64,000 nt of DNA from Patescibacteria group bacterium (GCA_040390045.1 JAZJZC010000001.1:108005-172004), one strand, 5' to 3'. Numbered from the stretch's first letter, positions 7,541 to 32,934 are shown. Notes: generated from the sequence alone by a model not told the origin. Numbers and translations are program-made.

Positions 7541-7636
7541 GAATTCATGGAACATGGAACACAAATCACAGAACACTGGGGGATAAAATTAATCTCTTTT
7601 TTATGATCCGTGTTCCATGTTTTGTGTTCTGTGACC
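7541..7636. repeat. Intergenic heptad-repeat inverted-arm element (CAYGGAA type).
   Basis: Left arm CATGGAA CATGGAA CACAAAT CACAGAA CAC at 7546-7576. Core tgggggataaaattaatctcttttttatg. Right arm cgtgttccatgttttgtgttctgtga at 7609-7634, inverted. Confidence 0.65.
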
Positions 7637-7989
7637 TAAAAGGTGTCCACTCCCAAATAGGTATTGGCCAAAAGTCTGGCTAGACCCCAGAAAGAGAAAA
7701 TAATAAACATCCCCAGAAGACCGTAAATAATGAGTTGTTTGGCTTTACCCAAACGTTCTTCGTCTCCACCTGCCCCGCTGTATTTTAAAATTCCGGTGAG
7801 CAATCCGAAAAAACCGAGACCGGCAACAAACATTGTAACGTCGCCTAAGATGTTTATAAAATTTAGAACAAATTCAGAAAAATTTCTAGACGGGGTCGCT
7901 GGCGTCGCGGCAACTGCGAGAAAAGGAAAGGTAGAAGACGAAATTATTATAGCCAAAGTTTTCGTATGTTTTCGTATTTTCGTAATCAT
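7636..7989 (-). CDS. Pilin-like hairpin protein, paralog 3.
   Basis: LKYSGAGGDEERLGKAKQLIIYGLLGMFIIFSFWGL. The N-terminal codons MITKIRKHTKT are encoded by TACGAAAAT repeats. Confidence 0.45.
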   Translation of the reverse strand: MITKIRKHTKTLAIIISSSTFPFLAVAATPATPSRNFSEFVLNFINILGDVTMFVAGLGFFGLLTGILKYSGAGGDEERLGKAKQLIIYGLLGMFIIFSFWGLARLLANTYLGVDTF

Positions 7990-8009
7990 TTAGTATGTTC
8001 GTATTACCG
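7958..8009. repeat. TACGAAAAT-family short dispersed repeat cluster.
   Basis: gttttcgtatgttttcgtattttcgtaatcatttagtatgttcgtatta. Confidence 0.55.
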
Positions 8010-8459
8010 TGTTGGACACGTGAGTCCTGCAGTACCGAGTTGTTGGATGGTGCCACAAATAATAGTGGAAATAACTTTAGCACCGAGTAGAACAGCGACA
8101 CCGATCACGGTCCACAAAAGTGCATTCTTGGCTTTACTTAATTTTTCTTCACTGCCTCCAGCCATAACCATCAGAAATCCAGCATAAATGAGAAAGAAAA
8201 TAGAGAGTAGAGCGGCAATCGGAAAAAGGGTATCGAGAAGTAATTTGATGAAAGCCTCGATAGAGTTAACGCTTCCAAGAGGATTGGTTATAATCGGGGC
8301 AATTTGTGATCCAGATCCACCTCCCGTGATCTGCGAGCCCTGAGCCAGAGCCGTAGTGGCTGAAAGCATTGCATATGTAACTCCTGTCAAAAACGCTAGA
8401 AAAATTTTAAATTTTTTAAATATCATTGAATATATTTGATTACTATTTTGGAGCTTCAT
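8004..8459 (-). CDS. Pilin-like hairpin protein, paralog 2.
   Basis: FFLIYAGFLMVMAGGSEEKLSKAKNALLWTVIGVAVLLGA. C-terminal Cys pair ICGTIQQLGTAGLTC. Confidence 0.5.
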   Translation of the reverse strand: MKLQNSNQIYSMIFKKFKIFLAFLTGVTYAMLSATTALAQGSQITGGGSGSQIAPIITNPLGSVNSIEAFIKLLLDTLFPIAALLSIFFLIYAGFLMVMAGGSEEKLSKAKNALLWTVIGVAVLLGAKVISTIICGTIQQLGTAGLTCPTR

Positions 8460-8485
8460 TAAAATGAATACGATTTGGAAAAATT

Positions 8486-8953
8486 TTATATTGGTTTTAA
8501 TGTACTCCTGCTTATAAACCCGGCATCAATTAACCCGGCGTCGATTGCATGGACAATAAGCCAGGCCGAAAGCATGATCAAAAACCCGACAAGCACTTTT
8601 CCAAAAATTTCTTTGGCATGCTCTATTTTACCCATTTCTCCTCCCGCTGTCATCATCAAAAATCCTGCCCAAGCAAAGGCGAGAGCAGAAACCGCTGCTC
8701 CAAGGACGATGAGGTAGTTAGCTATTTTATTGATGAGCGTAATAATGTGTTGAAATCCACAGGGATTCGAAACCGTACCTCCTACATATTTAACTCCACT
8801 TCCTGTTCCAAGGGTAGCCCCGTCAGGATAGACTTCTGTGCCACAGGGAATAAAATTTTGTACCGCTTGTCCAAAAACCAAAAAGGGTGCTGTAATCAAA
8901 AATATCGCCAAGAAAAACGAGAAGATGGCATTTTGATTTACAATTTTTGTCAT
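8486..8953 (-). CDS. Pilin-like hairpin protein, paralog 1.
   Basis: AFAWAGFLMMTAGGEMGKIEHAKEIFGKVLVGFLIMLSAW. The N-terminal variable region carries a Cys pair. Confidence 0.5.
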   Translation of the reverse strand: MTKIVNQNAIFSFFLAIFLITAPFLVFGQAVQNFIPCGTEVYPDGATLGTGSGVKYVGGTVSNPCGFQHIITLINKIANYLIVLGAAVSALAFAWAGFLMMTAGGEMGKIEHAKEIFGKVLVGFLIMLSAWLIVHAIDAGLIDAGFISRSTLKPI

Positions 8954-8964
8954 GAAAATTTTAT

Positions 8965-10234: not shown

Positions 10235-10278
10235 ATACGAAATTATTATACGAAAATACGAAATGTATACGAAAATTA
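10235..10278. repeat. TACGAAAAT-family repeat cluster in the upstream region of the SBP gene.
   Basis: atacgaaattattatacgaaaatacgaaatgtatacgaaaat. Confidence 0.55.
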
Positions 10279-10333
10279 TGTTCCACTGTTATAATTTTTA
10301 TACTAGCTCCAACGTCCATGTAAATATAGCATA

Positions 10334-10941: not shown

Positions 10942-11658
10942 TTATTTGCCGATTTTAAGTTCACCAAACAACCGGTACATCCCGATAAGTTCTTTCGTCA
11001 CAATAGCAGGGATTTTTTTCAGATAAAAAATATTGGTTTTTCCGCTCTGGCGCCTAAAATGATTAACTGGCACCTCGATTATTTTTGCGCCCGCAAGGTT
11101 TACTCGTATCACAAACTCAGCATTAAAAAACTGAAGATACGATACTTTTTGAGCAACGTCGTCCAAAAAACTTTTTTTAATAAGTCTAAAACCAGTATCC
11201 ATGTCCTCAAAAGAAACCTTGAATATCCTGCGTAACAAAAAATTATATCCTTTTGAGAGTACTGATCTTAGCGCACCGTCCTTTCTGTCGATTTTCTTTC
11301 CTAGAATAACATCATAGCGATCAGCGTACTCCCATAATTTCCAGAAATCTTTTGGGTCAAATTGGCTATCAGAATCAACGAGAAAAACCCACTCATACCG
11401 AGGGTATTTCAAAGAATCTTTAATGGCTTGAAGATACCCCTTTCTCTTTTCACTTAAGTATACTCGTATCGATAGTTCACTCTCCAAATCTTTAAGTATC
11501 CGTTTGGTGTCATCCGTACTTCCATCCTCCACGGCAATTATTTCAAAATTAAGTTTACCTTTTAGTTCGTTGTAATATGAATGAATTGTTTTAGCAATTA
11601 TGTACTCTTCATTGTATACAGGAAAAACAAATGATACGCTTCTGGTTTGTAAATTCAT
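10942..11658 (-). CDS. Family 2 glycosyltransferase (Dpm1/GtrB-like).
   Basis: IIAVEDGSTDDT (DxD region) and VDSDSQ, a typical GT-A fold. Confidence 0.7.
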   Translation of the reverse strand: MNLQTRSVSFVFPVYNEEYIIAKTIHSYYNELKGKLNFEIIAVEDGSTDDTKRILKDLESELSIRVYLSEKRKGYLQAIKDSLKYPRYEWVFLVDSDSQFDPKDFWKLWEYADRYDVILGKKIDRKDGALRSVLSKGYNFLLRRIFKVSFEDMDTGFRLIKKSFLDDVAQKVSYLQFFNAEFVIRVNLAGAKIIEVPVNHFRRQSGKTNIFYLKKIPAIVTKELIGMYRLFGELKIGK

Positions 11659-17926: not shown

Positions 17927-17972
17927 TGTGGGGCAATTTTAACAGAAAATGAATAAAAAGTGAAGTCCTTCA

Positions 17973-18016
17973 ATACGAAAAGGCGGGTATACGAAAATAC
18001 GAAATTTTACGAAAAC
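17973..18016. repeat. TACGAAAAT-family repeat cluster upstream of gyrA.
   Basis: atacgaaaaggcgggtatacgaaaatacgaaattttacgaaaac. Confidence 0.55.
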
Positions 18017-18328: not shown

Positions 18329-18420
18329 TGAAAATACGAAATAATACGAAAACTCTCGTTACATAGAAAAAATTTTTGTATGTTTTCGTATTTTCGTACC
18401 CATTTCGTATGTTCGTATTA
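18329..18420. repeat. TACGAAAAT-family repeat cluster with an inverted pair.
   Basis: gaaaatacgaaataatacgaaaac ... gtatgttttcgtattttcgtacccatttcgtatgttcgtatta. Confidence 0.6.
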
Positions 18421-19068
18421 AACCTGTGCCTCCAAAACAATCGCCTCGCCCTCTTTGCCCTCCAAATCTTTTTTCTTGAGCGTCAATTTATCTACCGGTT
18501 TAATTCCCTCTTCTCCGGCTTCTTTCAAAAATAACTTAAGATTTTTATCCTGAGCATTTTCGTAGTGGGTAGGAATAATAATTTTCGGTTCTAGTTTTAC
18601 TGCAAGCTCATAGGCCAGAGATGGACTCAAAACTCCTTCGCCACCAATTGGCACAAACAAAACATCAATATCATCGAGTGCTTCTTTGGTTTCCGCGGAT
18701 AAATCTTTAGAATCAAGCGCACCGAGGAAACAAAGATTCATGCCTTCCAACGATAGACTATATATAGTATTGAGTCGCGATTCGCCTGAGCCGGCCTTGA
18801 GCCCGTAGTGGGATTCACCTTTAAATCCTTTTATAAAAATTCCTTTAATTTCATATTCGCCAGGACCGGTAATAGCAAACGGCGCGCGATCGCCATGAGT
18901 GACTGCTTCAACACCGTTGAAATCTGGATCGTTTAAGGAAATCAAAGCGATGTCGGCACCAAATCGAGAAACTTTACGCTTTGAATCTTTCGAAATCGGG
19001 TTGACCGCGATCACGGTGTCGCCGAATTGAATCTTGAAGGCTTCGAGGCCTAGGTATGTGATTATCAT
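18418..19068 (-). CDS. Metallo-beta-lactamase-fold hydrolase (UPF0173-like).
   Basis: MIITYLGLEAFKIQFGDTVIAVNP N-terminus and IIPTHYEN near the C-terminus, typical of the MBL fold. Confidence 0.6.
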   Translation of the reverse strand: MIITYLGLEAFKIQFGDTVIAVNPISKDSKRKVSRFGADIALISLNDPDFNGVEAVTHGDRAPFAITGPGEYEIKGIFIKGFKGESHYGLKAGSGESRLNTIYSLSLEGMNLCFLGALDSKDLSAETKEALDDIDVLFVPIGGEGVLSPSLAYELAVKLEPKIIIPTHYENAQDKNLKLFLKEAGEEGIKPVDKLTLKKKDLEGKEGEAIVLEAQV

Positions 19069-19185
19069 AAAAATAAGCTGAAAGCTTATAGCTGTTAGCT
19101 GATAGGAAGAGGACTCAAGTATAACAGAACGGAAAAAAGATTAAAGCCCCCAATCATTGACAACTCCCAACAAATAAACTAGTTT

Positions 19186-21339: not shown

Positions 21340-21363
21340 ATATTGTTGTGATACAATAACAAC

Positions 21364-21765
21364 ATGCCACATGTATCCAAACACCTTGTAGCTGAAAAGG
21401 TACTCCGCGAACTAGAGGAGCACATTATCGCTGTCTTGAGTGACACAGGTTTGAAAGCCAGAAACAAAATCTTCAAAGAAATACTAACAAAGACAGAGAG
21501 ACTGATGGTTGCGAAACGTCTGGCAATGATTTACTTGATACAGAAAGGGAGGGCGACGCACGAGATCAGCGAGATGTTGAAGGTTAGTCCTTCAACTGTA
21601 GCTCGTTTTGAGAACCAACTTGAGCAAAAGTGTTTCATACACACCGCTTCGTGGGTAAAAAATCACGTTGCCATGAATCGCGTTTTTAAACTTATTTTTA
21701 ACTTAGCTGCCGTTCCGTTTGAAGCCCAGAAAAAATCTCTCGGCCAAATGCTTGATGAAAACTAA
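21364..21765 (+). CDS. TrpR/YerC-like HTH transcriptional regulator.
   Basis: LMVAKRLAMIYLIQKGRATHEISEMLKVSPSTVARF helix-turn-helix. Small (133 aa). Confidence 0.5.
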   Translation: MPHVSKHLVAEKVLRELEEHIIAVLSDTGLKARNKIFKEILTKTERLMVAKRLAMIYLIQKGRATHEISEMLKVSPSTVARFENQLEQKCFIHTASWVKNHVAMNRVFKLIFNLAAVPFEAQKKSLGQMLDEN

Positions 21766-21788
21766 TTATTGAACATGTCGGTTCACTA

Positions 21789-21810
21789 TTTGTACGATAT
21801 ATCGTACAAA
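21789..21810. promoter_or_regulatory. 22-bp palindrome, copy 2.
   Basis: Exact TTTGTACGATATATCGTACAAA. Confidence 0.6.
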
Positions 21811-21870
21811 ATCAATTTGACACCTTGAATTGTTCACGAAAGAAGAGACAAAAAAAACGGCTCTGCCCAA

Positions 21871-21892
21871 TTTGTACGATATATCGTACAAA
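21871..21892. promoter_or_regulatory. 22-bp palindrome, copy 3.
   Basis: Exact copy, embedded in a roughly 60-bp direct repeat shared with copy 4. Confidence 0.6.
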
Positions 21893-21902
21893 GTAGAGAT
21901 TT

Positions 21903-22532
21903 TTATAGAATAATTTCGTCACCTTTTCCGATCAATTCCACCTTCCCATCTCGCATCAAAATCCCTTGCTCATCGGTAAGAATTTTTACCGGAAGTGGGG
22001 TTTGAGAAATTTTTTCCTTCAAAATCTGATCATACTCTGGTTTGTAATGAACCGTCATAAGAAATGGAACCAAACTCATGGCGGTCAAATCGGTAAGATT
22101 GTAATGACTGTATTTATCCTGATGTTTCCAAAGCGCCATTTCTATTGTTGGACAGGCAACATAACTGCCGGCACTTGCTCCCATGTAAATTAAACCTTTC
22201 GGCAACAACTCTTTTATAATTTTTTCAAAACCACTCTGCCTAATTGACTTCATGAGTAAAAACGTATTACCACCTTCAACGTACACTAATTCAGTTTTTT
22301 CTAAAACTTTTTTTAAATCATCCCCTGTCGTGTGATCCAAATCTATTTCCGTGCAATCATAGTTGTGTTCTTTGAAAAACTTTCGATTCCTTTCAAAGTA
22401 GGCTGTATCAGAAACTCCTTTCGAAGCAGTTGTAATGTGAACCATCTTGAAAGTATTGAAAGGCCGCCCCAAAACTTCAGGAGGGTTGTTCATCAAAAAC
22501 CGAGCGGTGGAAAGCAATAAAATTGTACTCAT
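21903..22532 (-). CDS. Peptidase S51 (dipeptidase E-like).
   Basis: VYVEGGNTFLL motif and a Ser-nucleophile region GASAGS. Confidence 0.65.
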   Translation of the reverse strand: MSTILLLSTARFLMNNPPEVLGRPFNTFKMVHITTASKGVSDTAYFERNRKFFKEHNYDCTEIDLDHTTGDDLKKVLEKTELVYVEGGNTFLLMKSIRQSGFEKIIKELLPKGLIYMGASAGSYVACPTIEMALWKHQDKYSHYNLTDLTAMSLVPFLMTVHYKPEYDQILKEKISQTPLPVKILTDEQGILMRDGKVELIGKGDEIIL

Positions 22533-22599
22533 GTTTTTAAATTCTAGCTGGCTGTTTCATTACTCAAGAAAGAAGACGTACCAAAACAACCCTAGCCAA

Positions 22600-22621
22600 T
22601 TTGTACGATATATCGTACAAA
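22600..22621. promoter_or_regulatory. 22-bp palindrome, copy 4.
   Basis: Exact copy. Confidence 0.6.
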
Positions 22622-22631
22622 TTGCAAATAC

Positions 22632-23297
22632 TTATAATTTACTTTGATTGAAAATAAGATACTTCCCTTCACTAACAACCTCAACTTCCTCATCAACAAC
22701 TTTAAGTGCGGACTCATCGTCAAGAGCATATATTGGTTCTTTAATTTTTTCTGCAACCTTAGTGAGATTTTCTTTTGTATTCTTTGGTGAATCTGGAGAA
22801 TGTAAATGAGGGTAAAAATAAAAAGGAACCAAACCAAGTGCGTCATTGTCATCATACCCAGTAAGTTCTTTATAGACCGAACGTTTGTTACTCATCAGAA
22901 GTGTTGGTGCAGTAACAATACTGCCGGCGCTTATCCCAGCATATACCTTAGTTTTTAAGAGTTCAGGCAAAAGCTCCTTCAGGCCAGATTTTTTCATCCA
23001 ATACATCAAGTGAGCTGAAGTTCCTCCTGAGAAAAACAAAACATTAGCCTTCTCAAGTTTTGGTAACCAAATATCTTGAGGTAATGCAGAAATATCTACA
23101 ATATCAATAAATTTGAGACCAAGATTTTTGAGATTGGATAAATCATCTATAAACCAACTTTTGTCGCCCCTACTGACGTTCATTGCAGTAGGAATAAAAG
23201 CGAGGTGAATCTCACTCGCTGGCTTTCCGACTAAATCAATAAAGGCCTCGGCAATCGACTTGTTGCTAATACCGTTTGAAGTAAGAAATAATTTCAT
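22632..23297 (-). CDS. Peptidase S51 (dipeptidase E-like) paralog.
   Basis: FFSGGTSAHLMYWM and GISAGS. Tandem paralog of 21903..22532. Confidence 0.65.
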   Translation of the reverse strand: MKLFLTSNGISNKSIAEAFIDLVGKPASEIHLAFIPTAMNVSRGDKSWFIDDLSNLKNLGLKFIDIVDISALPQDIWLPKLEKANVLFFSGGTSAHLMYWMKKSGLKELLPELLKTKVYAGISAGSIVTAPTLLMSNKRSVYKELTGYDDNDALGLVPFYFYPHLHSPDSPKNTKENLTKVAEKIKEPIYALDDESALKVVDEEVEVVSEGKYLIFNQSKL

Positions 23298-23331
23298 GTT
23301 TTATTAAAAGCTCACAGCTCTCAGCTTAAAG

Positions 23332-23961
23332 CTATAAGCCACTTTGTTGACTCATCGCCATTTCGCGACCGTCGACAACAAGCGTATGCAATGATTCGTT
23401 TAGGGTTTTTGAAAGTTTTTTTAGAGTGGCAAGCTGATCAGGAGAAAATTTTCCGAGAATGTGTTTATCGACGGCTTCTTCACCCTTTGGTTTCTTGAGG
23501 TCGCCTTTGGGAGTGACCGGAGAAATACCGACCCGAACGCGGACAAAACTTTCAGTTTTAATTGCTTTCATAATTGACTCAACTCCCCTGTGGCCCCCAG
23601 AACTTTTGTTGAAAGAAATTTTCACTTTTCCAAACGGAATATCTAAGTCATCATGAATGACTGCCAAGTTGACCGCTTCAACCATTTTTTGTTTTCCCTT
23701 GCCGGTGGTTTTAAATTTTAAATCCTTGCACTTCTTCACCGCGTCACCTGACTTGTTCATGAAGGTTTCAGGTTCGATGAGCATGACAGCTGATGTACCG
23801 ACTTTGCCAGAAGAAATCAAAGCTTTGGTTTTAAAATCAGTTTCCCAATCGGACAAATTTTCAGCCACGCGAAAAGCCTCGAGAAAAATTCTTCCAGTGT
23901 TGTGACGGGTATTTTCGTATTCTGCACCGGGATTTCCGAGGCCGACAATGATGTAAGACAT
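23332..23961 (-). CDS. pth: Peptidyl-tRNA hydrolase.
   Basis: MSYIIVGLGNPGAEYENTRHNTGRIF. The track's 60-nt N-terminal extension lies in an intergenic heptad repeat. Confidence 0.85.
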   Translation of the reverse strand: MSYIIVGLGNPGAEYENTRHNTGRIFLEAFRVAENLSDWETDFKTKALISSGKVGTSAVMLIEPETFMNKSGDAVKKCKDLKFKTTGKGKQKMVEAVNLAVIHDDLDIPFGKVKISFNKSSGGHRGVESIMKAIKTESFVRVRVGISPVTPKGDLKKPKGEEAVDKHILGKFSPDQLATLKKLSKTLNESLHTLVVDGREMAMSQQSGL

Positions 23962-24002
23962 GGAAACAAGTATAGAGTATGGGGTATAAAGTATCAAGCG
24001 GG

Positions 24003-24112
24003 AAGACAGATCACGGAACACGGACCACAGAACATTAAAGCCGGCGCACTTCGCGCGCCGGCCTCTGTTCCCTCTTTTTTATGTTCCATGTTCTATGTTT
24101 CGTGTTCTGTGA
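24003..24112. repeat. Heptad-repeat inverted-arm element (CAYGGAA type) enclosing a GC hairpin terminator.
   Basis: TCACGGAA CACGGAC CACAGAA CAT at 24011-24035. Hairpin gccggcgc-acttcgc-gcgccggc followed by a T-run. Inverted arm atgttccatgttctatgtttcgtgttctgtga at 24081-24112. Confidence 0.65.
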
Positions 24113-25802
24113 GATATTCGGGCGTATTCCCCGCCATCCATTCAAAAAGTTGTCGCATCACATACAAAGCCCCAATCGTATTTTCGTATGGACCTTTTTC
24201 CATAATGGCAGCAAAAGCATATCGAGGGTGATCGTATGGGAAAAAACCCACAACCCATGAATTCACCAATTTTTTAGTTGTTCCAAGTTCAGCGGTTCCA
24301 GTTTTTGCGGCAAGCTCGACTTGTGAAATGTTCAAACCTTTTGAGGTTCCGACAAGTACTGATTGTCGCATGCCCTCCCGAACCACTTGCATTTGATCTT
24401 CAGTAAATGGTAACACTTCGGCAGCCTTATCTGCTTCAACCTTGCTTGTTTGCAACAAAGTTGGACTTAAAAGTTTTCCTCCGTTGACCAAACTGGCAAC
24501 TGCCCGAACCACTTGCGTCGGTGTCACCTGAAAACCATACTGACCAATCGCGGTGTGATACGTGTCTCCAATTCTCCAATCTTCTCCATTAAAATTTTCC
24601 TTTTTCCATTCCGGACTAGGAATCGTTCCATTTTTTTCCAAAAGCGGATTCCCGGGCAAGGTTTCTCCGAAACCAAAAAGTCGCATGTATTTTTCAATTT
24701 TGGCGATACCGAGACCAATCTGATTTTCAAATCCCCCGCCGATTTCGTAAAAATAAACGTCAGACGAAACCGCCAAGGCATCTCTCATGGCAACATACCC
24801 TTGCGGCCGCCAATCGTTAAACACACTTTTTTTAGTTGGATCAAATGGATTGGGAATAGAAATTGAACCGGTACTTAAAATAGTTTTGTTGGGATCAATA
24901 ATATTTTCTTTCAGCGCCGCGAGCGCCACAAACGGCTTGACGATCGAGCCTGGCGTGTACAAACCGTCAGTCACCCGATTAAGAAAAGGCATATTCTTAC
25001 TTTTGAAAAAATCGTTTATCTCTTTGGTGTTTGTGCGATCAGACATCACATTAGAATCATATTCAGGATAACTTACAGACGTTAAAATTTCGCCAGTGGT
25101 AACATCCATAATCACTCCCGCTCCACCTTGAAAGCCGATGCTATCCGCCGAGGCTTTCATAAGATCGTATAGTTTCTCACCGATTCTCACATCAATTGAA
25201 AGGTTGAGCGTCTGACCGTTTTCTGGAGGTTCGATCACGCTTTCAGTTTCAATTTTTCCCAGCGCGTTGGTTTCAATAATTTTCAGTCCCGGTTTTCCAG
25301 AAATTTGGCTTTCGTACATTTTCTCAACACCATCCATTCCTTCATAATGACCTTGGTAATAAAAACCGTTGGCATCTTTAGATGGATAGCGAATGTACCC
25401 TAGAATATGAGCGAGACCGTCAATCGAAGCGTATTTTCTTTGGGAATATTCGTTGGTTGTACTGGCTGAGACATTTGAGATTAAAGAAACCTTATTGCGG
25501 TCGTACACCACGCCACGTTCAGGGAAAATGGTAGTTTGACGCAAACTATTTTGTTCACTTTTCAATGCGTACTGTTTGCCCTGGGCCACTTGCAACATAG
25601 AAATTTTTCCGGAAAAAACCAAAAAAATAATCAAAAAAAGTATTCCCGCGCCAATAATGGTCTTTTTTGAAATTGGTTTTTCCAGGCGCCCTTCAAATTG
25701 ACTCCGATCGAAATCGGGCAAATTTTTGGCATCAAGCAAAACCTCATCAGGATCGATTTCCCTATTCCAATTTTTTTGATGAAGGTTTTTTTTAAATACC
25801 AT
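24093..25802 (-). CDS. mrdA: Penicillin-binding protein 2 (elongasome transpeptidase).
   Basis: SIVKP (SxxK), SSD (SxN) and KTG motifs. N-terminal TM segment. Lies in the mreBCD context. Confidence 0.8.
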   Translation of the reverse strand: MVFKKNLHQKNWNREIDPDEVLLDAKNLPDFDRSQFEGRLEKPISKKTIIGAGILFLIIFLVFSGKISMLQVAQGKQYALKSEQNSLRQTTIFPERGVVYDRNKVSLISNVSASTTNEYSQRKYASIDGLAHILGYIRYPSKDANGFYYQGHYEGMDGVEKMYESQISGKPGLKIIETNALGKIETESVIEPPENGQTLNLSIDVRIGEKLYDLMKASADSIGFQGGAGVIMDVTTGEILTSVSYPEYDSNVMSDRTNTKEINDFFKSKNMPFLNRVTDGLYTPGSIVKPFVALAALKENIIDPNKTILSTGSISIPNPFDPTKKSVFNDWRPQGYVAMRDALAVSSDVYFYEIGGGFENQIGLGIAKIEKYMRLFGFGETLPGNPLLEKNGTIPSPEWKKENFNGEDWRIGDTYHTAIGQYGFQVTPTQVVRAVASLVNGGKLLSPTLLQTSKVEADKAAEVLPFTEDQMQVVREGMRQSVLVGTSKGLNISQVELAAKTGTAELGTTKKLVNSWVVGFFPYDHPRYAFAAIMEKGPYENTIGALYVMRQLFEWMAGNTPEYLTEHET

Positions 25803-26055
25803 AAAATTTTAGATGTCTGCGCAAAAAAGCTTTGAGAATAAAAATAGCTGACATAGAAACCGAATAGAGCACAGGGGTGGGAAGAAACCGAGTGGGGACG
25901 CCGTAGAGCACATCAACAATGACTCCTAATATAATACATTCGTAAAAATTATCAAAAATAAACAAACAGATAATCGCTACCAAAAAAACCAGCCAGACGG
26001 GCAGTGCAAAAACGGCGGCCAAAAGAATGATGTCCATTAGAATTCTTAGTACCAT
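25792..26055 (-). CDS. mreD: Rod shape-determining protein MreD-like (short).
   Basis: 87-aa membrane protein with three TM segments between mreC and mrdA. Assigned by position. Confidence 0.4.
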   Translation of the reverse strand: MVLRILMDIILLAAVFALPVWLVFLVAIICLFIFDNFYECIILGVIVDVLYGVPTRFLPTPVLYSVSMSAIFILKAFLRRHLKFYGI

Positions 26056-26059
26056 AGAA

Positions 26060-26926
26060 TTATTCTTCGGAGGAAAGTATCAAAACCTGATCAACGATGT
26101 TCAAGTTGACCGGTAAGGTAAAAAGGATAGATTGAAAGGCGCTCGTTTCTGTCTGCTCAACATCTCCAACAACGCCGTAAAATTTCGGGTAGAGGCCCGT
26201 GGATTTTATCACGTCTCCCGGCTTAACCAGAATTTCTTTTGGGAGTTTAATAGAAAAATTTCCGGCTCCTCTGCCGAGCGCTTCGGTATCAACACCACTT
26301 GTACCGACCCTCACTAACACTGACTCACCGAAGGACGAAAACAAAGAAATTTTTGCATAGCGATTAAACACCTCTTCCACTGTACCAATAGCAAAGTCTT
26401 GAACTAAAACCAAATCGCCTTTTTTCACGCCATCATTTTTTCCCGCGTCAACCACAAAAGAATCATACGCAGTATGGCCGGGACGACTAAGAACGGAGGC
26501 TAAAACTGATTTCTCGCCGTTGGTCCTCCCGAGCAAAGTCTTGAGCGTGTCATTTTCTCTTTTGTAATCATCGAGGGTCGTAAGCGCCACGTTTGCAATA
26601 CTGAGCTTTAAAAGAAGCGCGGCATTTTCAGATTCCAGTTTCGCCTTATCATCAAACATAGACCACACAGCGGCAAAACTACCTTTGACAAATTCACTTG
26701 AATTCCAAACAGGCGTTGCAACCCCGTACAACGTTTGTGTCAAAAAGTTCGGAAGGAAAAAATAAAAAATTCCGGCCAGTCCAAGAACTAAAACCACGCC
26801 AACAATAGACTTCCAAGCGCTACTATTTCTGTGGTTATTTTTTTGGAGGTAATTCATCTTCATTCTGAAGCAACACTTCACTATACCGATCGAGATCTTC
26901 GAGAATAATTCCAGCGCCACGAGCAA
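26060..26926 (-). CDS. mreC: Rod shape-determining protein MreC.
   Basis: N-terminal TM segment, coiled-coil, then a beta-rich C-terminal domain. Lies downstream of mreB. The true start is probably the MKMNYLQ Met near 26863. Confidence 0.55.
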   Translation of the reverse strand: MLVALELFSKISIGIVKCCFRMKMNYLQKNNHRNSSAWKSIVGVVLVLGLAGIFYFFLPNFLTQTLYGVATPVWNSSEFVKGSFAAVWSMFDDKAKLESENAALLLKLSIANVALTTLDDYKRENDTLKTLLGRTNGEKSVLASVLSRPGHTAYDSFVVDAGKNDGVKKGDLVLVQDFAIGTVEEVFNRYAKISLFSSFGESVLVRVGTSGVDTEALGRGAGNFSIKLPKEILVKPGDVIKSTGLYPKFYGVVGDVEQTETSAFQSILFTLPVNLNIVDQVLILSSEE

Positions 26927-27899
26927 CGGCAGTCAAAGGGTCTTCGGCGATGTGTACGGGAATTTTTAAAGAATCGACCAACAGTTCATCAAAACCTTTG
27001 AGGAGCGCTCCACCTCCGACAAGATAGGCGCCGCGATGCATGATGTCTGCCACAATTTCAGGCGGCGTGGTTTCAAGAACTTCTTTAACGGACTCAACGA
27101 GATTATCGACCGATTGCGCAATCGCCTCACGAACATCAGAATCGGTCACAATCACTTCGCGTGGCAATCCGGTAATCAAATCGCGCCCTCGGATTGAAGC
27201 TTCCATTGGAGAGCCGCTGGGCAAGACAGAACCAATGGCAATTTTAATACTCTCAGCGGTTTTCTCCCCAATTAAAATTTTAAATTCGCCTCGAATATAG
27301 GAAATAATATCTTCATTCAATCGATCGCCGGCAATTTTCAAACTTTTTGAACGCACAATTCCTCCGAGAGAAATAACGGCAATGTCTGACGTACCTCCAC
27401 CGATATCAATAATCATATTTCCAACCGGTTCCTGCACGGGAAGACGAATACCGATGGCGGCGGCCATCGGTTCTTCTACGATATGGACTTCGCGCGCGCC
27501 GTTATTTTTGGTAGCGTCGCGTACCGCTCGGGTTTCCACATTTGTAATTCCTGAAGGAACTCCAACAACCACTCGCGGTCCCAAAAGTTTTCTAGAATTA
27601 GCTTCAGCTTTTTTTATCAAGTACGAAATCATTTCTTCAGTCACTTCAAAATCTGAAATTACACCGCCAACAAGCGGTTTGACCGCACTAATGTGCGGCG
27701 GCGTGCGTCCCAACATCGATTTAGCGTGAATACCAACGGCCACCACTTGACCAGTTTTATTATTAACGGCAACAACAGAAGGTTCGTTGATAATAATTCC
27801 CTGTCCGCGCATGTAGACCAGTGTATTAGCCGTACCGAGATCAATCCCGATGTCATTCGACAAAAAAGTATACATTTTTTCTAGGTGTTTGTTTCTCAT
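26835..27899 (-). CDS. mreB: Rod shape-determining protein MreB.
   Basis: IGIDLGTANTLVY, DIGGGTSD and LVGGGALLKG actin-fold motifs. Confidence 0.85.
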   Translation of the reverse strand: MRNKHLEKMYTFLSNDIGIDLGTANTLVYMRGQGIIINEPSVVAVNNKTGQVVAVGIHAKSMLGRTPPHISAVKPLVGGVISDFEVTEEMISYLIKKAEANSRKLLGPRVVVGVPSGITNVETRAVRDATKNNGAREVHIVEEPMAAAIGIRLPVQEPVGNMIIDIGGGTSDIAVISLGGIVRSKSLKIAGDRLNEDIISYIRGEFKILIGEKTAESIKIAIGSVLPSGSPMEASIRGRDLITGLPREVIVTDSDVREAIAQSVDNLVESVKEVLETTPPEIVADIMHRGAYLVGGGALLKGFDELLVDSLKIPVHIAEDPLTAVARGAGIILEDLDRYSEVLLQNEDELPPKK

Positions 27900-27907
27900 G
27901 TGGCTTC

Positions 27908-29149
27908 TTAGATCATCTTGAGCACTTCAGCTTCACTCAACATTTTTGATTGGCTTTCGGTTCTGCCTTTAACTTCAATCACGCCCGCCTTGACTGTTTT
28001 ATCGCTGACCACAAGCCGCCATGGTAGACCCAACAAATCCGAATCAGCAAATTTTTCTCCGGCGCGAAGATCTCGATCGTCATACAAAACCTCAACTCCC
28101 ATCTTATTTAATTTCTCGTACAACTCGTCTGCGTATTTTTTAGCGTCACCTTCCATAGAAAGTGAGATGAGGTGAACTTTAAACGGCGCAACTGATTCTG
28201 GCCAGACAATGCCTTTTTCATCGGCGAGAACTTCCACAATCGTACCCATGAGTCTCCCGAGCCCGATACCGTAGCAACCCATAATAACGGTTTTCTTTTC
28301 ACTTTTTTCGTCCATGAAATGGAGCTCAAGTGGTTCAGAAAAATTAACTCCGAGATTAAAAATATTTCCAACCTCAACGGCTTTTTTCTTCACTAAATCT
28401 TTATTGCCACAATTAGGACAAGCGGATACTTCCTTGAAAATTTCATCGTTAATAGCCATTTTACATTTCTCGCAAATATAAATGACATCTTCTCCTGCGT
28501 CAGTCACCGTCTGAAATTCATCTGAGTATTTTGAAAAACTTCCACCACTTGAAGACGTGATGTACGTCTGTGAACCAATTCCAACTGCATCGTAAATATT
28601 TTTGTACGCAGTTTTTGCTCCCTCATAAAAAGCTGAGTGTTCCTCCTGAGTTCTCGAAAAAGAATACATATCTTTCATCAAAAATTCTCGGCCGCGAATG
28701 ATGCCACTTTTGGCTCGCGCTTCATTTCTAAATTTCGTTTGGATTTGGTAAATATACAACGGCAAATCTCTCCACGAACGAACATAATCTTTCAAAAGAT
28801 TGGTGAGCTCGGCTTCGTGACTGTATCCAAGCCCGACCTCGTTGTCATTTTTTAATTTAGTTTTAAACCAATTGTCGACAACCGCGTCACTCCATTTGCC
28901 AGCTTTCTCCCAAAGATTTTTGTCTTGAAGAACCGTGAGCATCACTTCCTGTCCGCCAACCGCATTCATTTCCCTGCGAATAATGTTGCCAATTTTGTTT
29001 ATAACTCTAAGGCCGAGCGGCAGATATGAATAAACTCCAGCCATTTCTTTGTGAATAAATCCTGCGCGAATGAGCAGTTCGGCATTTTTTGCCACTTCAT
29101 CTTTTGGAGCCTCTTTGCGAGTTTTTGTAAAAAGTTTTGATTGGCGCAT
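27908..29149 (-). CDS. proS: Prolyl-tRNA synthetase, short form without the INS editing domain.
   Basis: The N-terminus MRQSKLFTKTRKEAPKDEVAKNAELLIRAGFIHKEMAGVYSYLPLGLRV aligns with bacterial ProRS. 413 aa implies no insertion domain. Confidence 0.75.
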   Translation of the reverse strand: MRQSKLFTKTRKEAPKDEVAKNAELLIRAGFIHKEMAGVYSYLPLGLRVINKIGNIIRREMNAVGGQEVMLTVLQDKNLWEKAGKWSDAVVDNWFKTKLKNDNEVGLGYSHEAELTNLLKDYVRSWRDLPLYIYQIQTKFRNEARAKSGIIRGREFLMKDMYSFSRTQEEHSAFYEGAKTAYKNIYDAVGIGSQTYITSSSGGSFSKYSDEFQTVTDAGEDVIYICEKCKMAINDEIFKEVSACPNCGNKDLVKKKAVEVGNIFNLGVNFSEPLELHFMDEKSEKKTVIMGCYGIGLGRLMGTIVEVLADEKGIVWPESVAPFKVHLISLSMEGDAKKYADELYEKLNKMGVEVLYDDRDLRAGEKFADSDLLGLPWRLVVSDKTVKAGVIEVKGRTESQSKMLSEAEVLKMI

Positions 29150-29215
29150 AAAATAAAATAGGTGGATAGAAATTAAAATCCGTGGCTTTAATACTACAGC
29201 AAAGCCCGAAAAAAC

Positions 29216-29233
29216 GCGATAGTTGACTATCGC
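29216..29233. promoter_or_regulatory. Palindrome GCGATAGTTGACTATCGC in the proS upstream region.
   Basis: 7-bp inverted repeat around TTGAC. Confidence 0.3.
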
Positions 29234-29306
29234 AATTCTTTATTGTAACTGACGAGGACAAACTCTATTATCGTAGACTTAGAGAAAAGGGCCAAACAGG
29301 CAAGTT

Positions 29307-30407
29307 CTAAAAGAGCTTAACGATATCGTGATAGGTAATAAATAGCATCAGTAAAATAAGCAACCCGAATCCTGCCGTGTTTAATCCTTGAATCAATTTC
29401 GGTTTGAGCGGCGAGCCTTTAATAGCTTCAATGAGGACCACAAAAATTCTACCGCCATCGAGCGCCGGCAGTGGTAAAAGATTAATAACAGCCAAATTTA
29501 TTGAAAGAAGCGCGGTGAAAAAAATCAAATACGAGAAACCAAGATTTTTCGCGTCGCCAACCAACGAGACCATACCGATGGGACCCGAGACCGTAGACAA
29601 ATCAGCTCGTCCAAAAATCGCATCTTTGAAAAAATCAAAAATTCCCAGCGCCACATTTACAAACAAACGCTCAGTCATAATTCCTGCTTGCCAAAAAGCT
29701 TTAAAAATTGGCAACTTGATGTAGCCGATCATGTCCATGCCGATTCCGATAGCTACCGCGTCCCCAACGATTCCTTTTTTCGCTTCAATCTGCAGTTGAG
29801 AAATTTTTGACCCGCGCTGTATAGACATCTCAATTGGACCCTTGCTTTTCATAATAAAATCGTGAACCGTGTCTGGATTTAATTTTTCCGTCATTTGAGC
29901 CGTTGTGGTTTTTAATGAAAGAATCGCGTCTCCCGCTTTCAACCCTGACAATTCTGCTGGTGAATTTGGCAAAATGGAAGTGACAGTTAATTGTACATTA
30001 GTCAGTTGTGAAGCATTGGTCGTGTCGAGGGCTGTCGGCAAACCGAACATAAAACCTAGAGAAATAATAAGCCACGCAAAAATAACATTAAACAAAACGC
30101 CGCCAGAGAGCACAGCCGCTTGAACGAAACTACTTTTATGCGCCAAACTTCGACTTTTATTTTCAACCACTCCATTGGGGCTTTCTAAACTTTCAGCGTT
30201 CTCACCGAAAATTCTCACAAACCCGCCGAACGGTAAGAGGTTCAGCGAGTAGATAGTCTCACCAATTTTTTTACTAAAAAGTGTGGGAGGAAATCCCAAA
30301 CCAAATTCATCTACTCTCACTCCATTTTTTTTGGCAATCAAAAAATGGCCAAGTTCGTGAACGAGGACGAGCAACGCTAAAATTATTAGAAAAATTATTA
30401 TGTTCAT
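29307..30407 (-). CDS. rseP: RIP metalloprotease RseP (site-2 protease).
   Basis: HELGHFLIAKKNGV zinc motif, a PDZ segment and C-terminal LDGG. Start taken at MNIIIFLIIL; the track extension runs into an intergenic repeat. Confidence 0.75.
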   Translation of the reverse strand: MNIIIFLIILALLVLVHELGHFLIAKKNGVRVDEFGLGFPPTLFSKKIGETIYSLNLLPFGGFVRIFGENAESLESPNGVVENKSRSLAHKSSFVQAAVLSGGVLFNVIFAWLIISLGFMFGLPTALDTTNASQLTNVQLTVTSILPNSPAELSGLKAGDAILSLKTTTAQMTEKLNPDTVHDFIMKSKGPIEMSIQRGSKISQLQIEAKKGIVGDAVAIGIGMDMIGYIKLPIFKAFWQAGIMTERLFVNVALGIFDFFKDAIFGRADLSTVSGPIGMVSLVGDAKNLGFSYLIFFTALLSINLAVINLLPLPALDGGRIFVVLIEAIKGSPLKPKLIQGLNTAGFGLLILLMLFITYHDIVKLF

Positions 30408-30417
30408 TTTTAAAAAG

Positions 30418-30506
30418 GGTTTAGGGTAGAGGGCACAGGGTTTAATCAAAAAAGATTTCTTGTATTTCAAAAACTACACCCTTAACCCTAACCCCTATAC
30501 CCTAAC
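30418..30506. repeat. Heptad-repeat inverted-arm element (AGGGTNN type).
   Basis: GGGTTTA GGGTAGA GGGCACA GGGTTTA at 30418-30447. AT-rich core. Inverted arm cacccttaaccctaacccctataccctaac at 30477-30506. Confidence 0.6.
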
Positions 30507-31050
30507 TTTGTATTTCCTTCTCCTTCCTCTCCGCCGCGTCCCCAAGTTTTTTATTGAGCGCATCCACAAGCTTTTGCAATTCCGCTTTTAAACGAAACTT
30601 TTCGTCTTCTCCCATGCCCCCTGCTTTTTCTGCCGCCTCAATTTCTTTTTGGACTTCATCACGCAATTTTCTCACTGAGACTCGCGCATCTTCCAATTTA
30701 TCTTTCGCGATTTTCAATAACGCTGTTCGTCGATCGTTGGTTAGTTCTGGAAATGAAACTCGAACACCAGTGTCCACTGCGGCTACAGATAGCCCCAGGC
30801 TCGCCGCCACAACCGCTTTTTCAATTTCTTTTATGAGTGACGTGTCCCACGGTGTGATAAAAAGTGATCGCGCGTCCTGACTAGCGATGCTTCCAACAGA
30901 ACTAATCGGCATCTTGGCGCCATATGACTCAACTAAAATTCCATCGAGAATAGCTGGCGTTGCGCGAGACGTGCGAACACTCCCCAACTCCTTAGTGAGC
31001 CACTCTTCGATATCTTTGCCTTTTTGATTGAATTTAGTGAAGGAAAACAT
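30502..31050 (-). CDS. frr: Ribosome recycling factor.
   Basis: Full-length similarity to RRF (TSRATPAILDGILVESYG ... ELTNDRRTALLKIAK). Confidence 0.85.
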   Translation of the reverse strand: MFSFTKFNQKGKDIEEWLTKELGSVRTSRATPAILDGILVESYGAKMPISSVGSIASQDARSLFITPWDTSLIKEIEKAVVAASLGLSVAAVDTGVRVSFPELTNDRRTALLKIAKDKLEDARVSVRKLRDEVQKEIEAAEKAGGMGEDEKFRLKAELQKLVDALNKKLGDAAERKEKEIQS

Positions 31051-31057
31051 AGAGGGT

Positions 31058-31140
31058 CATGGAACACGTAGCACACAACATGGAGCAAGGGGATAAATCT
31101 TGTCTGCATGTTCCATGCTTCATGATACGTGCTCCATGTT
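31058..31140. repeat. Heptad-repeat inverted-arm element (CAYGGAA type).
   Basis: tcatggaacacgtagcacacaacatggagcaag - ggggataaatcttgtctg - catgttccatgcttcatgatacgtgctccatgtt. The GGGGATAAA core is shared with the 7541 element. Confidence 0.65.
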
Positions 31141-31179
31141 ATATTATCAGCTCTCCAGAAAAAATCCAATCACGAAAAA

Positions 31180-31881
31180 TCATTTAGGCAGCGGAACTAT
31201 AAGAGAAACGTATTCCAAAAGCATTTTGACGCTCGCCGAGCGGTCGAGCATATAGTCTCGGCATTTTTCGATATCGACTAAAATTTTTGGCGACAGCCCC
31301 TTTTTATCTTTAAACTTTTGATACAAAATTTCTTCAACACCTTCGATCAAACGGAGTGCTTCTGCCTTAGTTTTCTTTTCGTCTTTAATATCGTCGGCTA
31401 GTTTTTTAACAAAGGCGAGACGTTTGGGTAAACTGAGAGAGAGGAATTCTTTGGCCCCGGCCGCGGCGGCCGGGGCTGTTCTCATCTCAATCTTTGCCAC
31501 ACGCGAGAGCAACGTCGGGATCAAATTTTTCACACATTCGCCAAGCAAGAAAAAATAAGTATTTTCAGTCGGTTCTTCAAAAACTTTCAACAATGAATTT
31601 TGGGCTTCGAGCGTTATCGAGTCCGCTTCAATCACAAAAATTTTCTTAGCGTCCACTACAAAAGATTTTTTTTCTTGAAATTCTTTCAGAATTCTGGCGT
31701 TTTCAATGTTCAATGATTCAAATTTCTGATACGAAAAATCTGGGTTGCCCTTCGTTTCAATCTTCCACGAGCGTTCTAAAAGTTCAAATAATTTTTCTTT
31801 GGCGTTAACATCTCCAAAAATAGCATTGGCATGATGCCCCAAAATTTCGGCATGTTCCGTGTTCCGTGTTTTGTGTTCCAT
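31180..31881 (-). CDS. DNA polymerase III delta-prime-like clamp-loader subunit, with no Walker A.
   Basis: IFVIEADSITLEAQNSLLKVFEEP sensor-1 / SRC-region motif. No P-loop is visible. The N-terminal codons overlap a heptad repeat, so the start is uncertain. Confidence 0.5.
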   Translation of the reverse strand: MEHKTRNTEHAEILGHHANAIFGDVNAKEKLFELLERSWKIETKGNPDFSYQKFESLNIENARILKEFQEKKSFVVDAKKIFVIEADSITLEAQNSLLKVFEEPTENTYFFLLGECVKNLIPTLLSRVAKIEMRTAPAAAAGAKEFLSLSLPKRLAFVKKLADDIKDEKKTKAEALRLIEGVEEILYQKFKDKKGLSPKILVDIEKCRDYMLDRSASVKMLLEYVSLIVPLPK

Positions 31882-31882
31882 G
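31851..31882. repeat. Single heptad-repeat arm (CAYGGAA type).
   Basis: catgttccgtgttccgtgttttgtgttccatgg. Confidence 0.55.
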
Positions 31883-31886
31883 GCTT

Positions 31887-32900
31887 CTAGCGCTTCGCTA
31901 TGATGCTCTTCTTGTACATCTCAAGATGCTCCAACGCAATTCCTGTCCCGAGAGCCACACAATAGAGTGCATCTTTAGCAAGTGTGGCTTTCACTCCAGT
32001 TCGGCGAAAAACCAATTCTGGTAAATTGCGCAACTGCGAAGAACCGCCTGTCATCATAATTCCTTGATCAATAATATCCGCAGCCAGTTCTGGTGGCGTT
32101 TCCTGCAAAACATCTTTAATAGCTTTGACCATTTCGCGAAGTTCTTTACTGATGGCTTTGACCACTTCGTTGGTTTTTACTTCAGCTGTTCGAGGAAGCC
32201 CAGTAATAAAATCACGGCCTTTGATTGTCATGGCAATCTCTTCTTCGAGCGGCACGGCAGAACCGATATTAATTTTTATATCCTCCGCCATTTTATCCCC
32301 AATCGCTAAGTTGAAAGTTTTTTTAATGTAATCGGTAATGGCAATATCAATTTTGTTGCCAGCCACTTTTACGGAAGTTGAAGCAACAATACCTCCAAGC
32401 GAAATCACCGCCACATCTGTCGTGCCACCACCGATATCCACAATCATTCGTCCCACAGCTTCTTGAATAGGAATACCCGCGCCGATGGCCGCCAAAATTG
32501 GTTCCTTCACCACGTAGGCATTTTTGGCTCCAGCTTTAATAGCCGCCTCAATCACCGCGCGCCGTTCAGTCGAAGTCACGCCAGCTGGCACACTGATCAT
32601 CACTTCTGGTTTCCAAATATTCCATTTGCCAAGAGCCTTGTTTATAAAATATCGCAACATGGCTTCGGTCACTCGATAATCAGCAATCACACCATCTTTC
32701 ATCGGGCGGTAGGCAATAATCGAATCGGGGGTTTTCCCAATCATATTTTTGGCTTCAACTCCGACGGCTAAAATTTTATTGTCTTGTTCAGACACGGCAA
32801 CCACTGATGGTTCGTTTAACACGACGCCTTTACCCGGAACAAACACCAAGGTGTTGGCGGTGCCGAGATCAATGCCAAGTTTTTTGGAAAATAAACTCAT
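31887..32900 (-). CDS. MreB-like actin homolog, second paralog.
   Basis: LGIDLGTANTLVF, DIGGGTTD and MTGGSSQL actin-fold motifs. Confidence 0.8.
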   Translation of the reverse strand: MSLFSKKLGIDLGTANTLVFVPGKGVVLNEPSVVAVSEQDNKILAVGVEAKNMIGKTPDSIIAYRPMKDGVIADYRVTEAMLRYFINKALGKWNIWKPEVMISVPAGVTSTERRAVIEAAIKAGAKNAYVVKEPILAAIGAGIPIQEAVGRMIVDIGGGTTDVAVISLGGIVASTSVKVAGNKIDIAITDYIKKTFNLAIGDKMAEDIKINIGSAVPLEEEIAMTIKGRDFITGLPRTAEVKTNEVVKAISKELREMVKAIKDVLQETPPELAADIIDQGIMMTGGSSQLRNLPELVFRRTGVKATLAKDALYCVALGTGIALEHLEMYKKSIIAKR

Positions 32901-32904
32901 AAGA

Positions 32905-32934
32905 AGGGTTGAGGGTATAGGGTTCAGGGTTTAG
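32905..32934. repeat. Single heptad-repeat arm (AGGGTNN type).
   Basis: agggttgagggtatagggttcagggtttag, upstream of the mreB paralog. Confidence 0.55.

Follow-up and report, generated by a model that had tools for sequence, protein, structure and literature searches.

The stretch of DNA analysed here, 64,000 nucleotides from a Patescibacteria group bacterium (GCA_040390045.1, JAZJZC010000001.1:108005-172004; called the window below, with positions counted from its first letter), carries on its minus strand genes for MreB, DNA_pol3_delta2 (holB-like), RRF (frr), Peptidase_M50 (rseP), a class II aminoacyl-tRNA synthetase, a second MreB, MreC, PBP2 (mrdA), Pth and two Peptidase_S51 proteins, named from the Pfam matches of a contig identical to window positions 21314-39148. 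Short tandem arrays of 7-nt units, found at the junctions and in the leaders of these and other minus-strand, co-directional genes, are the subject of this work. There are 14 strict period-7 arrays at ten sites between 7.5 and 39.9 kb (Table 1), and no heptamer array from 42 kb to the end of the window. All of them either adjoin or overlap a stop codon or end 4-21 nt 5' of a start codon; in two cases they overlap coding ends, since the mrdA stop (TAG, 24093-24095) lies inside the 5' arm of the 24001-24112 element and the array at 31851-31883 forms the N-terminus of the holB-like protein. A preliminary description, made from the sequence, had recognised six sites of two unit types and proposed that gene-boundary elements with inverted arms of 7-nt periodicity form a family. 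All six sites are present at the coordinates given and the family exists, but it is larger than was thought, with more sites and five unit types: GGAACAY (A), AGGGTNN (B), AGCTNNN (C), GTATNNN (D) and GATTYNN (E). Several unrelated unit families thus stand side by side in one genome, and arrays of the same type cluster locally. At gathering thresholds Rfam returned a single tRNA in the window and no match at any of the elements.

Table 1. Heptamer arrays and associated features of the window, with coordinates, strand and genetic context.
Feature	Coordinates	Strand	Context
Type A two-arm element, GGAACAY 4+4	7546-7634	-	between two T4SS_pilin paralogs
Type C single array, AGCTNNN x4	19073-19106	-	ends 7 nt before ATG of Lactamase_B_3 gene (18418-19068)
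Type C single array, AGCTNNN x4	23305-23339	-	from pth stop codon to 11 nt before Peptidase_S51 ATG (22632-23297)
Type D single array, ATACTNN x4 (mRNA sense)	23969-23998	-	ends 8 nt before pth ATG 23961
Type A two-arm element	24001-24112	-	between mrdA (PBP2) and pth
GC-rich hairpin, 13 pairs, core of the 24001-24112 element	24037-24065	-	terminator-like; weak T-tail TTTAATGTT
Type B two-arm element	30414-30506	-	between frr and rseP; kept in L118
Type A two-arm element, 4+4, 83 nt	31058-31140	-	holB-frr spacer
Type A single array, GGAACAC AAAACAC GGAACAC GGAACAT	31851-31883	-	5 nt past mreB stop
Type B single array, ACCCTNN x4 (mRNA sense)	32903-32935	-	most of the ~35-nt mreB leader
Type E single array, GATTYAR x4 (mRNA sense)	39828-39864	-	begins 5 nt past stop of 39865-41475 gene
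Class F (looser), TACGAAA / TTTCGTA boxes in inverted arms, spacing 8-11 nt	18333-18419	-	kept apart from the strict arrays
Other class F (TACGAAA / TTCGTAT) sites	7955-8003; 10240-10290; 17930-18005; 41476-41558		irregular spacing, 7-13 nt

The period of seven is far beyond what base composition would give. A self-similarity scan (21-nt window, at least 15 matches, periods 5-12) returned 11 period-7 segments in the window against 0.2 in dinucleotide shuffles, and this is the only period enriched, with 0-4 segments at periods 5, 6 and 8-12 against 0.1-0.7 in shuffles. The unit consists of a conserved core of 4-5 nt and 2-3 free positions, and a module contains 4-5 copies, spanning 28-35 nt. 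When exact 4-mer cores repeated at a fixed spacing at least three times in a row are counted, 13 runs are found at spacing 7, nine of them with four cores and none longer, and 0-3 runs at spacings 5, 6 and 8-12. Cut at their cores and read in the mRNA sense, all strict arrays of the window show the spacing 7,7,7, so that the 3-5 units given before have to be narrowed, the number here being nearly always four. For comparison we collected 80 loci from metagenome-assembled genomes of Paceibacteria / 'Candidatus Taylorbacteria' in a search with MreB (83-88% amino-acid identity) and 41 metagenome loci, including genus-level relatives (MreB 93-94%), in a search with the holB-like protein, 1.8 Mb in total. 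The window genome is itself a Paceibacteria ('Candidatus Taylorbacteria'-like) metagenome assembly. In these related loci, 58 runs of four or more cores have spacing 7, and no other spacing has more than 5. With tolerant extension, 73 arrays have three units, 41 have four and another 41 have five, beyond which there are only three arrays of six and one of seven. Array size is therefore sharply capped at 28-35 nt.

The placement of the individual elements relative to start and stop codons is precise. In the frr-rseP element the frr stop codon is the point where the G-rich arm (AGGGTNN x4, sense) sets in, and 9 nt separate the end of the C-rich arm (ACCCTNN x4) from the true rseP ATG at 30407, a start fixed by alignment with 62 relatives. 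The 31058-31140 element lies between -10-like hexamers (GATAAT/TATAAC) and the frr ATG, its 3' arm ending 6 nt before the latter, while the mreB-leader array has a conserved -10 region (CGTACTATACT / TACAAT) on its 5' side and the ATG (32900) on its 3' side. In the 7546-7634 element the 5' arm begins 1 nt past the stop of the 7636-7989 gene and the 3' arm ends 21 nt before the ATG at 7524, where we place the start of the 6985 gene. The sequence GGGGATAAA, reported earlier as common to two type A cores, is indeed found at both 7580-7592 and 31089-31100. A perfect GC hairpin terminator had also been claimed for the type A core between mrdA and pth; the hairpin is real and terminator-like, with a weak T-tail (Table 1). 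The GTAT array adjoining this element forms a sigma-70-like promoter (TTGATA-17-TATACT), and so the suggestion of transcription punctuation probably applies at this one site, where a terminator-like hairpin is followed by a promoter before pth. None of the other elements was flagged as a terminator, and such a reading was rejected for the elements in general. The arrays also mislead callers of open reading frames (ORFs) in practice: annotated N-termini were suspected of being extended into the arrays, and this is the case for pth (true start at 23961) and rseP, and probably for the 6985 gene, judging from our reading of the sequence. It is not the case for the holB-like gene. There the array makes up the first 10 codons (MEHKTRNTEH) and is truly coding, because the next residues, AEIL, are common to the relative L083 and there is no other in-frame start; an orthologous array is present in L082.

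Comparison with the relatives indicates how these junctions came to carry arrays. Few bases separate frr and rseP in most of the 62 relatives (a spacer of less than ~20 nt, often a TAATG overlap), and about 12 of the 62 have a hairpin inserted in this spacer, mostly with 7-periodic arms of unrelated sequence: AATCCTT/AAGGATT in L022, TAGTATN/ATACTAN in L049, CCAATTN/AATTGGA in L068 and CAATTTN/GAAAATT in L072. Among genus-level relatives, L082 and L084 have TACGAAA/TTCGTAT arms, L089 has the AGCT type and L118 has AGGGT/ACCCT, that is, the window element. Conservation of position, which had been put forward as a check, is thus found at the level of junctions: the same ones carry arrays in some relatives, often built of different units. 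When the 60 nt upstream of mreB were scanned in loci L001-L080, 39 of 79 loci proved to have a -10-like hexamer whose end lies 4-13 nt from the ATG, with a peak at 10 nt, and only 3 of 79 a Shine-Dalgarno-like motif. The closeness of the -10 box to the ATG together with the scarcity of Shine-Dalgarno motifs indicates near-leaderless transcripts, and by these sequence criteria leaderless or near-leaderless mRNAs seem to be in use in the clade. In the mreB leader of the window genus the order is conserved promoter, array and then ATG in all genus-level relatives, with three different units (ATTCGTA-like in L082, L083, L084 and L087, TAATTCC x4 in L085, ACCCTNN in the window). Before frr the -10 box of the relatives ends 7 nt from the ATG and the 31058-31140 element is absent. 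Since the relatives mostly have tight junctions, where stop and start codons overlap or a -10 box lies ~10 nt from the ATG, the modules represent lineage-specific insertions. Throughout the related loci the arrays overlap or adjoin stops or end 4-16 nt 5' of start codons, and the start-proximal ones are poor in G in the sense orientation (10% against 22% background). Separately, the frr-rseP spacer of L001, L014, L058 and L078 contains larger inserts of 200-490 nt with long inverted repeats, and in L030 a near-perfect period-8 array (GTTTAGTC x6, 11194-11250) follows mreB.

Are such arrays retained because they do something, or are they functionless by-products of replication slippage that survive where they are harmless, in the bases at gene boundaries and at dispensable protein termini? 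Heptanucleotide repeats are the commonest class of long prokaryotic simple sequence repeat (SSR) and are attributed to polymerase slippage (Mrazek, 2007, as cited in PMC4679880 and PMC4692102). The absence of arrays from these junctions in most relatives, the arbitrary unit sequences that vary between genomes, the possibility of seeding arrays on a -10 box or on start and stop codons, the presence of some arrays in coding ends and the lack of compensatory evolution between arms would all be expected of neutral slippage. What it does not explain well is the constraint at the frr-rseP junction. Between the window and L118, 28 of 31 positions of the 5' arm and 24 of 30 of the 3' arm are identical, and in the 3' arm every CCCT core is identical, with all changes falling at inter-core positions; in frr itself only 20 of 61 four-fold degenerate sites and 36% of third codon positions agree. 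Arms conserved at 80-90% where neutral sites are saturated at 33% identity mean that at least this module pair is under strong constraint. (An exact-protein look-up of RRF returned only the contig identical to the window, one of MreB gave no entry, and the RRF cluster has a single member.) Slippage would also be expected to produce a long tail of array sizes, which the cap at 4-5 units lacks, and the imperfect units disfavour ongoing slippage. In the species of L082 there is no indel in any array among 10 contigs from different samples (98.6-99.96% identical), hence no length polymorphism; the arrays are accordingly not hypervariable contingency repeats, and a phase-variation reading is unsupported. 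Finally, arrays recur at the same junctions with different units. On balance we regard purely neutral slippage as unlikely, though it deserves to be taken seriously.

In our view the arrays are very probably heptanucleotide modules of the SSR type best known from cyanobacteria as STRR sequences (for short tandemly repeated repetitive), with which they share tandem 7-bp units and inverted sets able to form an intercistronic hairpin. The heptad period and the sharing of one design by two or more sequence types, noted as unusual in the preliminary description, are the published hallmark of heptanucleotide SSR/STRR arrays (PMC2670836, PMC4692102, PMC4679880). Several STRR unit families per genome were reportedly described by Mazel and colleagues in 1990. 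The STRR hairpins lie between co-transcribed genes, for example hupS and hupL, where a role in transcript stability or translational coupling was proposed (PMC2670836; STRR are also the subject of Vioque, 1997, as cited in PMC7593598). Unlike the 4-5 imperfect units found here, STRR arrays can be long; their unit sequences are unrelated to ours, and the host in our case is a member of the Patescibacteria with a tiny genome. A second likeness is to the TAACTGA repeats of marine Beggiatoaceae and some Cyanobacteria and Bacteroidetes, which are present in 2-6 copies a few nucleotides 5' of start codons, where the Shine-Dalgarno sequence that these genes lack would be expected (MacGregor, 2015, PMC4679880). 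No functional pattern was seen among the genes downstream of them, and S1, cold shock proteins (Csp) and CsrA were proposed as readers (PMC4679880). Heptamers a few nucleotides before starts in a setting poor in Shine-Dalgarno sequences are common to both cases, but there a single unit is used genome-wide as opposed to at least five here, none of the window units is TAACTGA, and inverted pairs are almost lacking (one indirect repeat). Together with the Xanthomonas and Nostoc repeats discussed below, these are the same kind of repeat, and Patescibacteria are a phylum new for it, as our literature searches found no report of heptamer repeats in Patescibacteria or Parcubacteria. It is 35 years since heptanucleotide arrays at gene boundaries were first reported, in cyanobacteria; reports from Xanthomonas and Beggiatoaceae followed, and no function has yet found acceptance. 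The appearance of the same design in Patescibacteria, with minimal genomes, little non-coding DNA, near-leaderless transcripts and almost no Shine-Dalgarno sequences, makes a shared cause likelier than a set of lineage-specific accidents.

What would this cause be? Taken as a whole, the observations are in our opinion best explained by heptanucleotide modules of this kind that arise locally and may act in cis on operon mRNA, an explanation to which, with all its parts, we would assign a probability of about one half. The modules may originate from 7-nt slippage or duplication seeded on local sequence, such as stop-codon context, a -10 box or a start codon. The GTAT array consists of four -10-like hexamers, type A units contain a start codon and many stop-side arrays open with a stop codon; local copying is suggested by the fact that arrays of the same type are neighbours. 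Once formed, they would be retained for what they do on the transcript. The modules take the place of tight stop/start overlaps and of leaderless starts, which points to translation initiation or coupling. A single G-poor array right 5' of the AUG could provide an unstructured leader or a multivalent landing pad in a host that hardly uses Shine-Dalgarno sequences, and the candidate reader would be a four-OB (oligonucleotide/oligosaccharide-binding) domain S1 protein or a protein of the Csp type, whose footprint is ~7 nt. The window does encode a short ribosomal protein S1 homolog (383 aa, 20053-21204) with four S1 domains, whose top match is a four-domain S1 profile, below the curated cut-offs. 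Two opposed arrays of the same unit would form an interrupted stem-loop of four short core helices separated by internal loops of 2-3 nt. By covering the whole spacer, this structure could hold stop and start codons side by side, so that a ribosome terminating there would unfold the start region downstream (translational coupling, as the ancestral TAATG overlap provided), and it could also lend the transcript a protective structure. This specific role as cis modules of operon mRNA at cistron junctions is more tentative than the identity of the repeats, and we would put its chances somewhat short of even.

Folding of the RNA across the elements, proposed in the preliminary description, gives a mixed picture. 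Two-arm elements fold far better than shuffled sequences, with z-scores of -3.2 to -9.2 in the sense strand, the four strict ones falling between -3.2 and -6.1 (-29.5 kcal/mol and z -3.9 for 7546-7634, -52.4 and -6.1 for 24001-24112, -37.0 and -5.9 for 31058-31140, -34.4 and -3.2 for frr-rseP). A number of points nevertheless weigh against a role in mRNA. Sense and antisense strands fold with equal stability, showing neither strand bias nor a G-U asymmetry signal. Unit permutation over 23 automatically paired elements revealed that the mirror register, expected of a hairpin, has 173 mismatches as compared to 158.5 +/- 5.65 for random unit order (P=0.005), while pairing of units in the same order gives 151, slightly below random (P=0.11). 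The 7546-7634 element illustrates this well, as its right arm repeats the left arm units in the same order, each reverse-complemented, with 3 mismatches versus 11 in the mirror register. No compensatory change is found between arms, and the differences between the window and L118 are uncompensated. Arrays of the same type pair in trans as well as with their own partner. The excess of C over G in start-proximal arrays is modest per array, and the sign test on orientation, counted by eye, is weakly one-sided. Arrays inside coding sequence, in the holB-like N-terminus and in fmt, are not explained by a role in mRNA leaders, nor does the module model account for a unit length of 7 nt, and the junctions devoid of arrays in most relatives must be counted on the same side.

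The arm complementarity therefore comes from the unit consensus only. With a mirror register worse than random and with uncompensated changes, the stem is not optimised as a hairpin, and the folded form is modelled as four core helices of 4-5 bp with small internal loops in between. Since cores are conserved while inter-core positions are not, and arms are not mirror images, the object of selection appears to be the array of short cores and not a perfect hairpin.

The same absence of true inverted repeats bears on the kinship with repetitive extragenic palindromic (REP) sequences, bacterial interspersed mosaic elements (BIMEs) or miniature inverted-repeat transposable elements (MITEs) that was suggested at the outset, that is, on the arrays being small non-autonomous mobile elements inserting at gene boundaries. 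Presence and absence relative to related genomes does resemble insertion, same-type arrays are neighbours, larger MITE-like inserts occur in the same spacer (the four loci listed above), and the type A copies at 7546 and 24011 align across both arms and the start of the loop, CATAAAAAAGAG. The REP/BIME sequences and REPINs (REP doublets forming hairpins; PMC3116915) of proteobacteria are, like our elements, short intergenic palindromic sequences at gene ends inside operons, giving stem-loops in mRNA. But a REP is one imperfect palindrome in many almost identical copies, which a REP-associated tyrosine transposase (RAYT) mobilises (PMC3116915), while here there is an internal periodicity of 7 nt, many unrelated sequences and, by the register test (P=0.005), arms falling short of true inverted repeats. 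Among the type A copies the mean column identity is 60%, and their flanks have no target-site duplication; other types occur once or twice in the 64 kb of this genome covered here and are unrelated to them, and type A itself was met in only one other fetched genome, at the orthologous site. Neither a transposase nor a RAYT was found among the 30 window proteins scanned, and the serine recombinase at 42174-43685 belongs to what is probably a separate integrated element. Single-arm and coding arrays do not fit either. Such kinship is hence hard to maintain, and we consider a mobile origin very improbable.

For the type B arrays only, one could think of G-quadruplex or i-motif switches, in DNA or RNA, through which mreB and rseP would be modulated at the level of transcription or translation. 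The window contains three canonical motifs (G3N1-7 x4), all of them type B arrays, with 0.34 expected from shuffles, and a published parallel is also G-rich: the quadruplex-forming GGGNATC / GGGGAYT repeats of Xanthomonas and Nostoc, which prefer four units and lie between co-directional ORFs (Rehm et al., 2015, PMC4692102). Their G-rich strand is the non-coding one within 50 bp upstream of an ORF and the coding one within 50 bp after a stop codon, with which the repeats may overlap; stem-loops may arise from inverted copies, the repeats at a given gene vary between related species, and neither an association with mobile elements nor a function was found (PMC4692102). Type B arrays follow all of these rules of placement, strand and four tracts, differing in the unit sequence itself (AGGGTNN) and in that GGGNATC arrays reach 26 units, a length with no counterpart here. 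They differ also in a third respect, which speaks against quadruplexes as the reason for four units: the same design of four 7-nt units is found in GGAACAY, AGCT, GTAT and GATTY arrays, which are incapable of forming quadruplexes. Four units thus need no quadruplex explanation, and with 4-5 units present whatever the unit sequence, quadruplex formation is not the general reason for the design. In addition, one GGG tract of the sense-strand arm is gone in the L118 ortholog, and a G-rich arm standing opposite a C-rich arm would pair with it instead. A switch of this kind is hardly to be expected.

A protein reading the double-stranded DNA is another option, and binding arrays for a nucleoid or regulatory protein had been suggested before. 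The model here is the omega repressor/ParB of pSM19035, a ribbon-helix-helix (RHH) protein that binds one dimer per heptad and so demonstrates that a 7-bp register can be read by protein; its operators consist of 6-10 unspaced heptads, direct or inverted, over promoters (PMC4627068). With one 7-bp heptad per dimer, of such a repressor or of a nucleoid protein, inverted arms would be converging arrays. This geometry equals that of our arrays, and further agreement comes from both strands folding alike, arms not optimised as hairpins, conserved cores with free spacer positions and the overlap of the GTAT array with a promoter. Omega operators, on the other hand, have the single consensus WATCACW and sit at plasmid promoters with the cognate protein encoded next door, and nothing of the kind is seen here. 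A scan of 30 window proteins yielded neither an RHH nor an omega-like one. To serve five unrelated cores in 64 kb, with cores changing between relatives at the same junction, a very small genome would need many specific proteins; for a single nucleoid or regulatory protein, unit changes at the same junction are equally hard to reconcile. Many arrays are intercistronic, with no promoter nearby, and the strand rule relative to start and stop codons is not expected of a symmetric duplex binder. In our opinion DNA operators are improbable, and modules acting on operon mRNA remain the preferred explanation.

Within this preferred explanation a more far-reaching version can be imagined, in which the module of four 7-nt units is a sequence-programmable cis element: any core repeated four times would bind the four OB folds of S1 or four Csp monomers and so replace the Shine-Dalgarno interaction, and same-unit arrays of an operon would pair alternatively over long range, balancing the translation of cell-shape genes. 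An example would be the mreB-leader ACCCU x4, the AGGGU x4 that follows frr and the ACCCU x4 that precedes rseP. The mreB-leader array is predicted to pair with the post-frr arm at -38.7 kcal/mol, as against -34.2 for the local partner. In three genomes, which between them use two different units, the mreB leader and the rseP-proximal arm have their unit in common. We regard this version as a long shot.

Several other features touch on the arrays. The class F boxes (Table 1), which occur as single or inverted arms, resemble the -10 region of the clade (CGTATAGT). They are found in the mreB leaders of L015, L018, L022, L082-L084 and L087 and, across the family, outnumber every other array type before mreB; at 7955-8003 they extend into the N-terminal codons of a pilin paralog (MITKIRKHTK). 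This paralog belongs to a row of six T4SS_pilin (TrbC/VirB2-like) genes on the minus strand at 5053-8953, between which one type A element and one class F array are located. The coding sequence of fmt holds a four-unit heptamer array in L018 (899-940), L022 (4869-4905) and L077 (6665-6693), reading FLYKLKAKSYKLFIVVAYG, with a length equal to that of the window FVSNLKEKNLDLCIVAAYG. Its units are AAGCTAN in L018 and AAACTAN in L022, with the identical G/A difference in all four, which looks like concerted change within a coding region.

Elsewhere in the window, a 22-bp palindrome, TTTGTACGATATATCGTACAAA, is present in four perfect copies (21318-21339, 21789-21810, 21871-21892 and 22600-22621; 0 expected) flanking a Trp_repressor/HTH_23-like gene (21364-21765) and the two Peptidase_S51 genes, and it is probably the operator of this putative regulator. 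Downstream of priA there is a period-9 array (AAGTTCATC x3.6, 36824-36855), followed at 36880-36990 by two long perfect palindromes, AACCATTCACACATTCG/CGAATGTGTGAATGGTT and GCATTATACCTTTCG/CGAAAGGTATAATGC. The region 42114-48650 is probably an integrated mobile element. Its tRNA (42114-42185) is followed by genes for a large serine recombinase (42174-43685), for an excisionase-like HTH_17 protein (45313-45498) and for an AbiEii toxin (47193-48650). A replication origin, oriC, near 47 kb, considered because of DnaA-box 9-mers and a strand switch, was rejected: 47193-48650 is the toxin gene, and the three boxes, against 0.66 expected, were reached in 3 of 100 shuffles. At the start of the window, the ORF at 1368-1943 has a PaaX_M / Cas2-like domain and flanking inverted repeats that contain CACGGCCGTG, and a 48-nt tandem repeat of 2.7 copies (3272-3399) lies within a 512-aa ORF (2410-3948) with no Pfam match.

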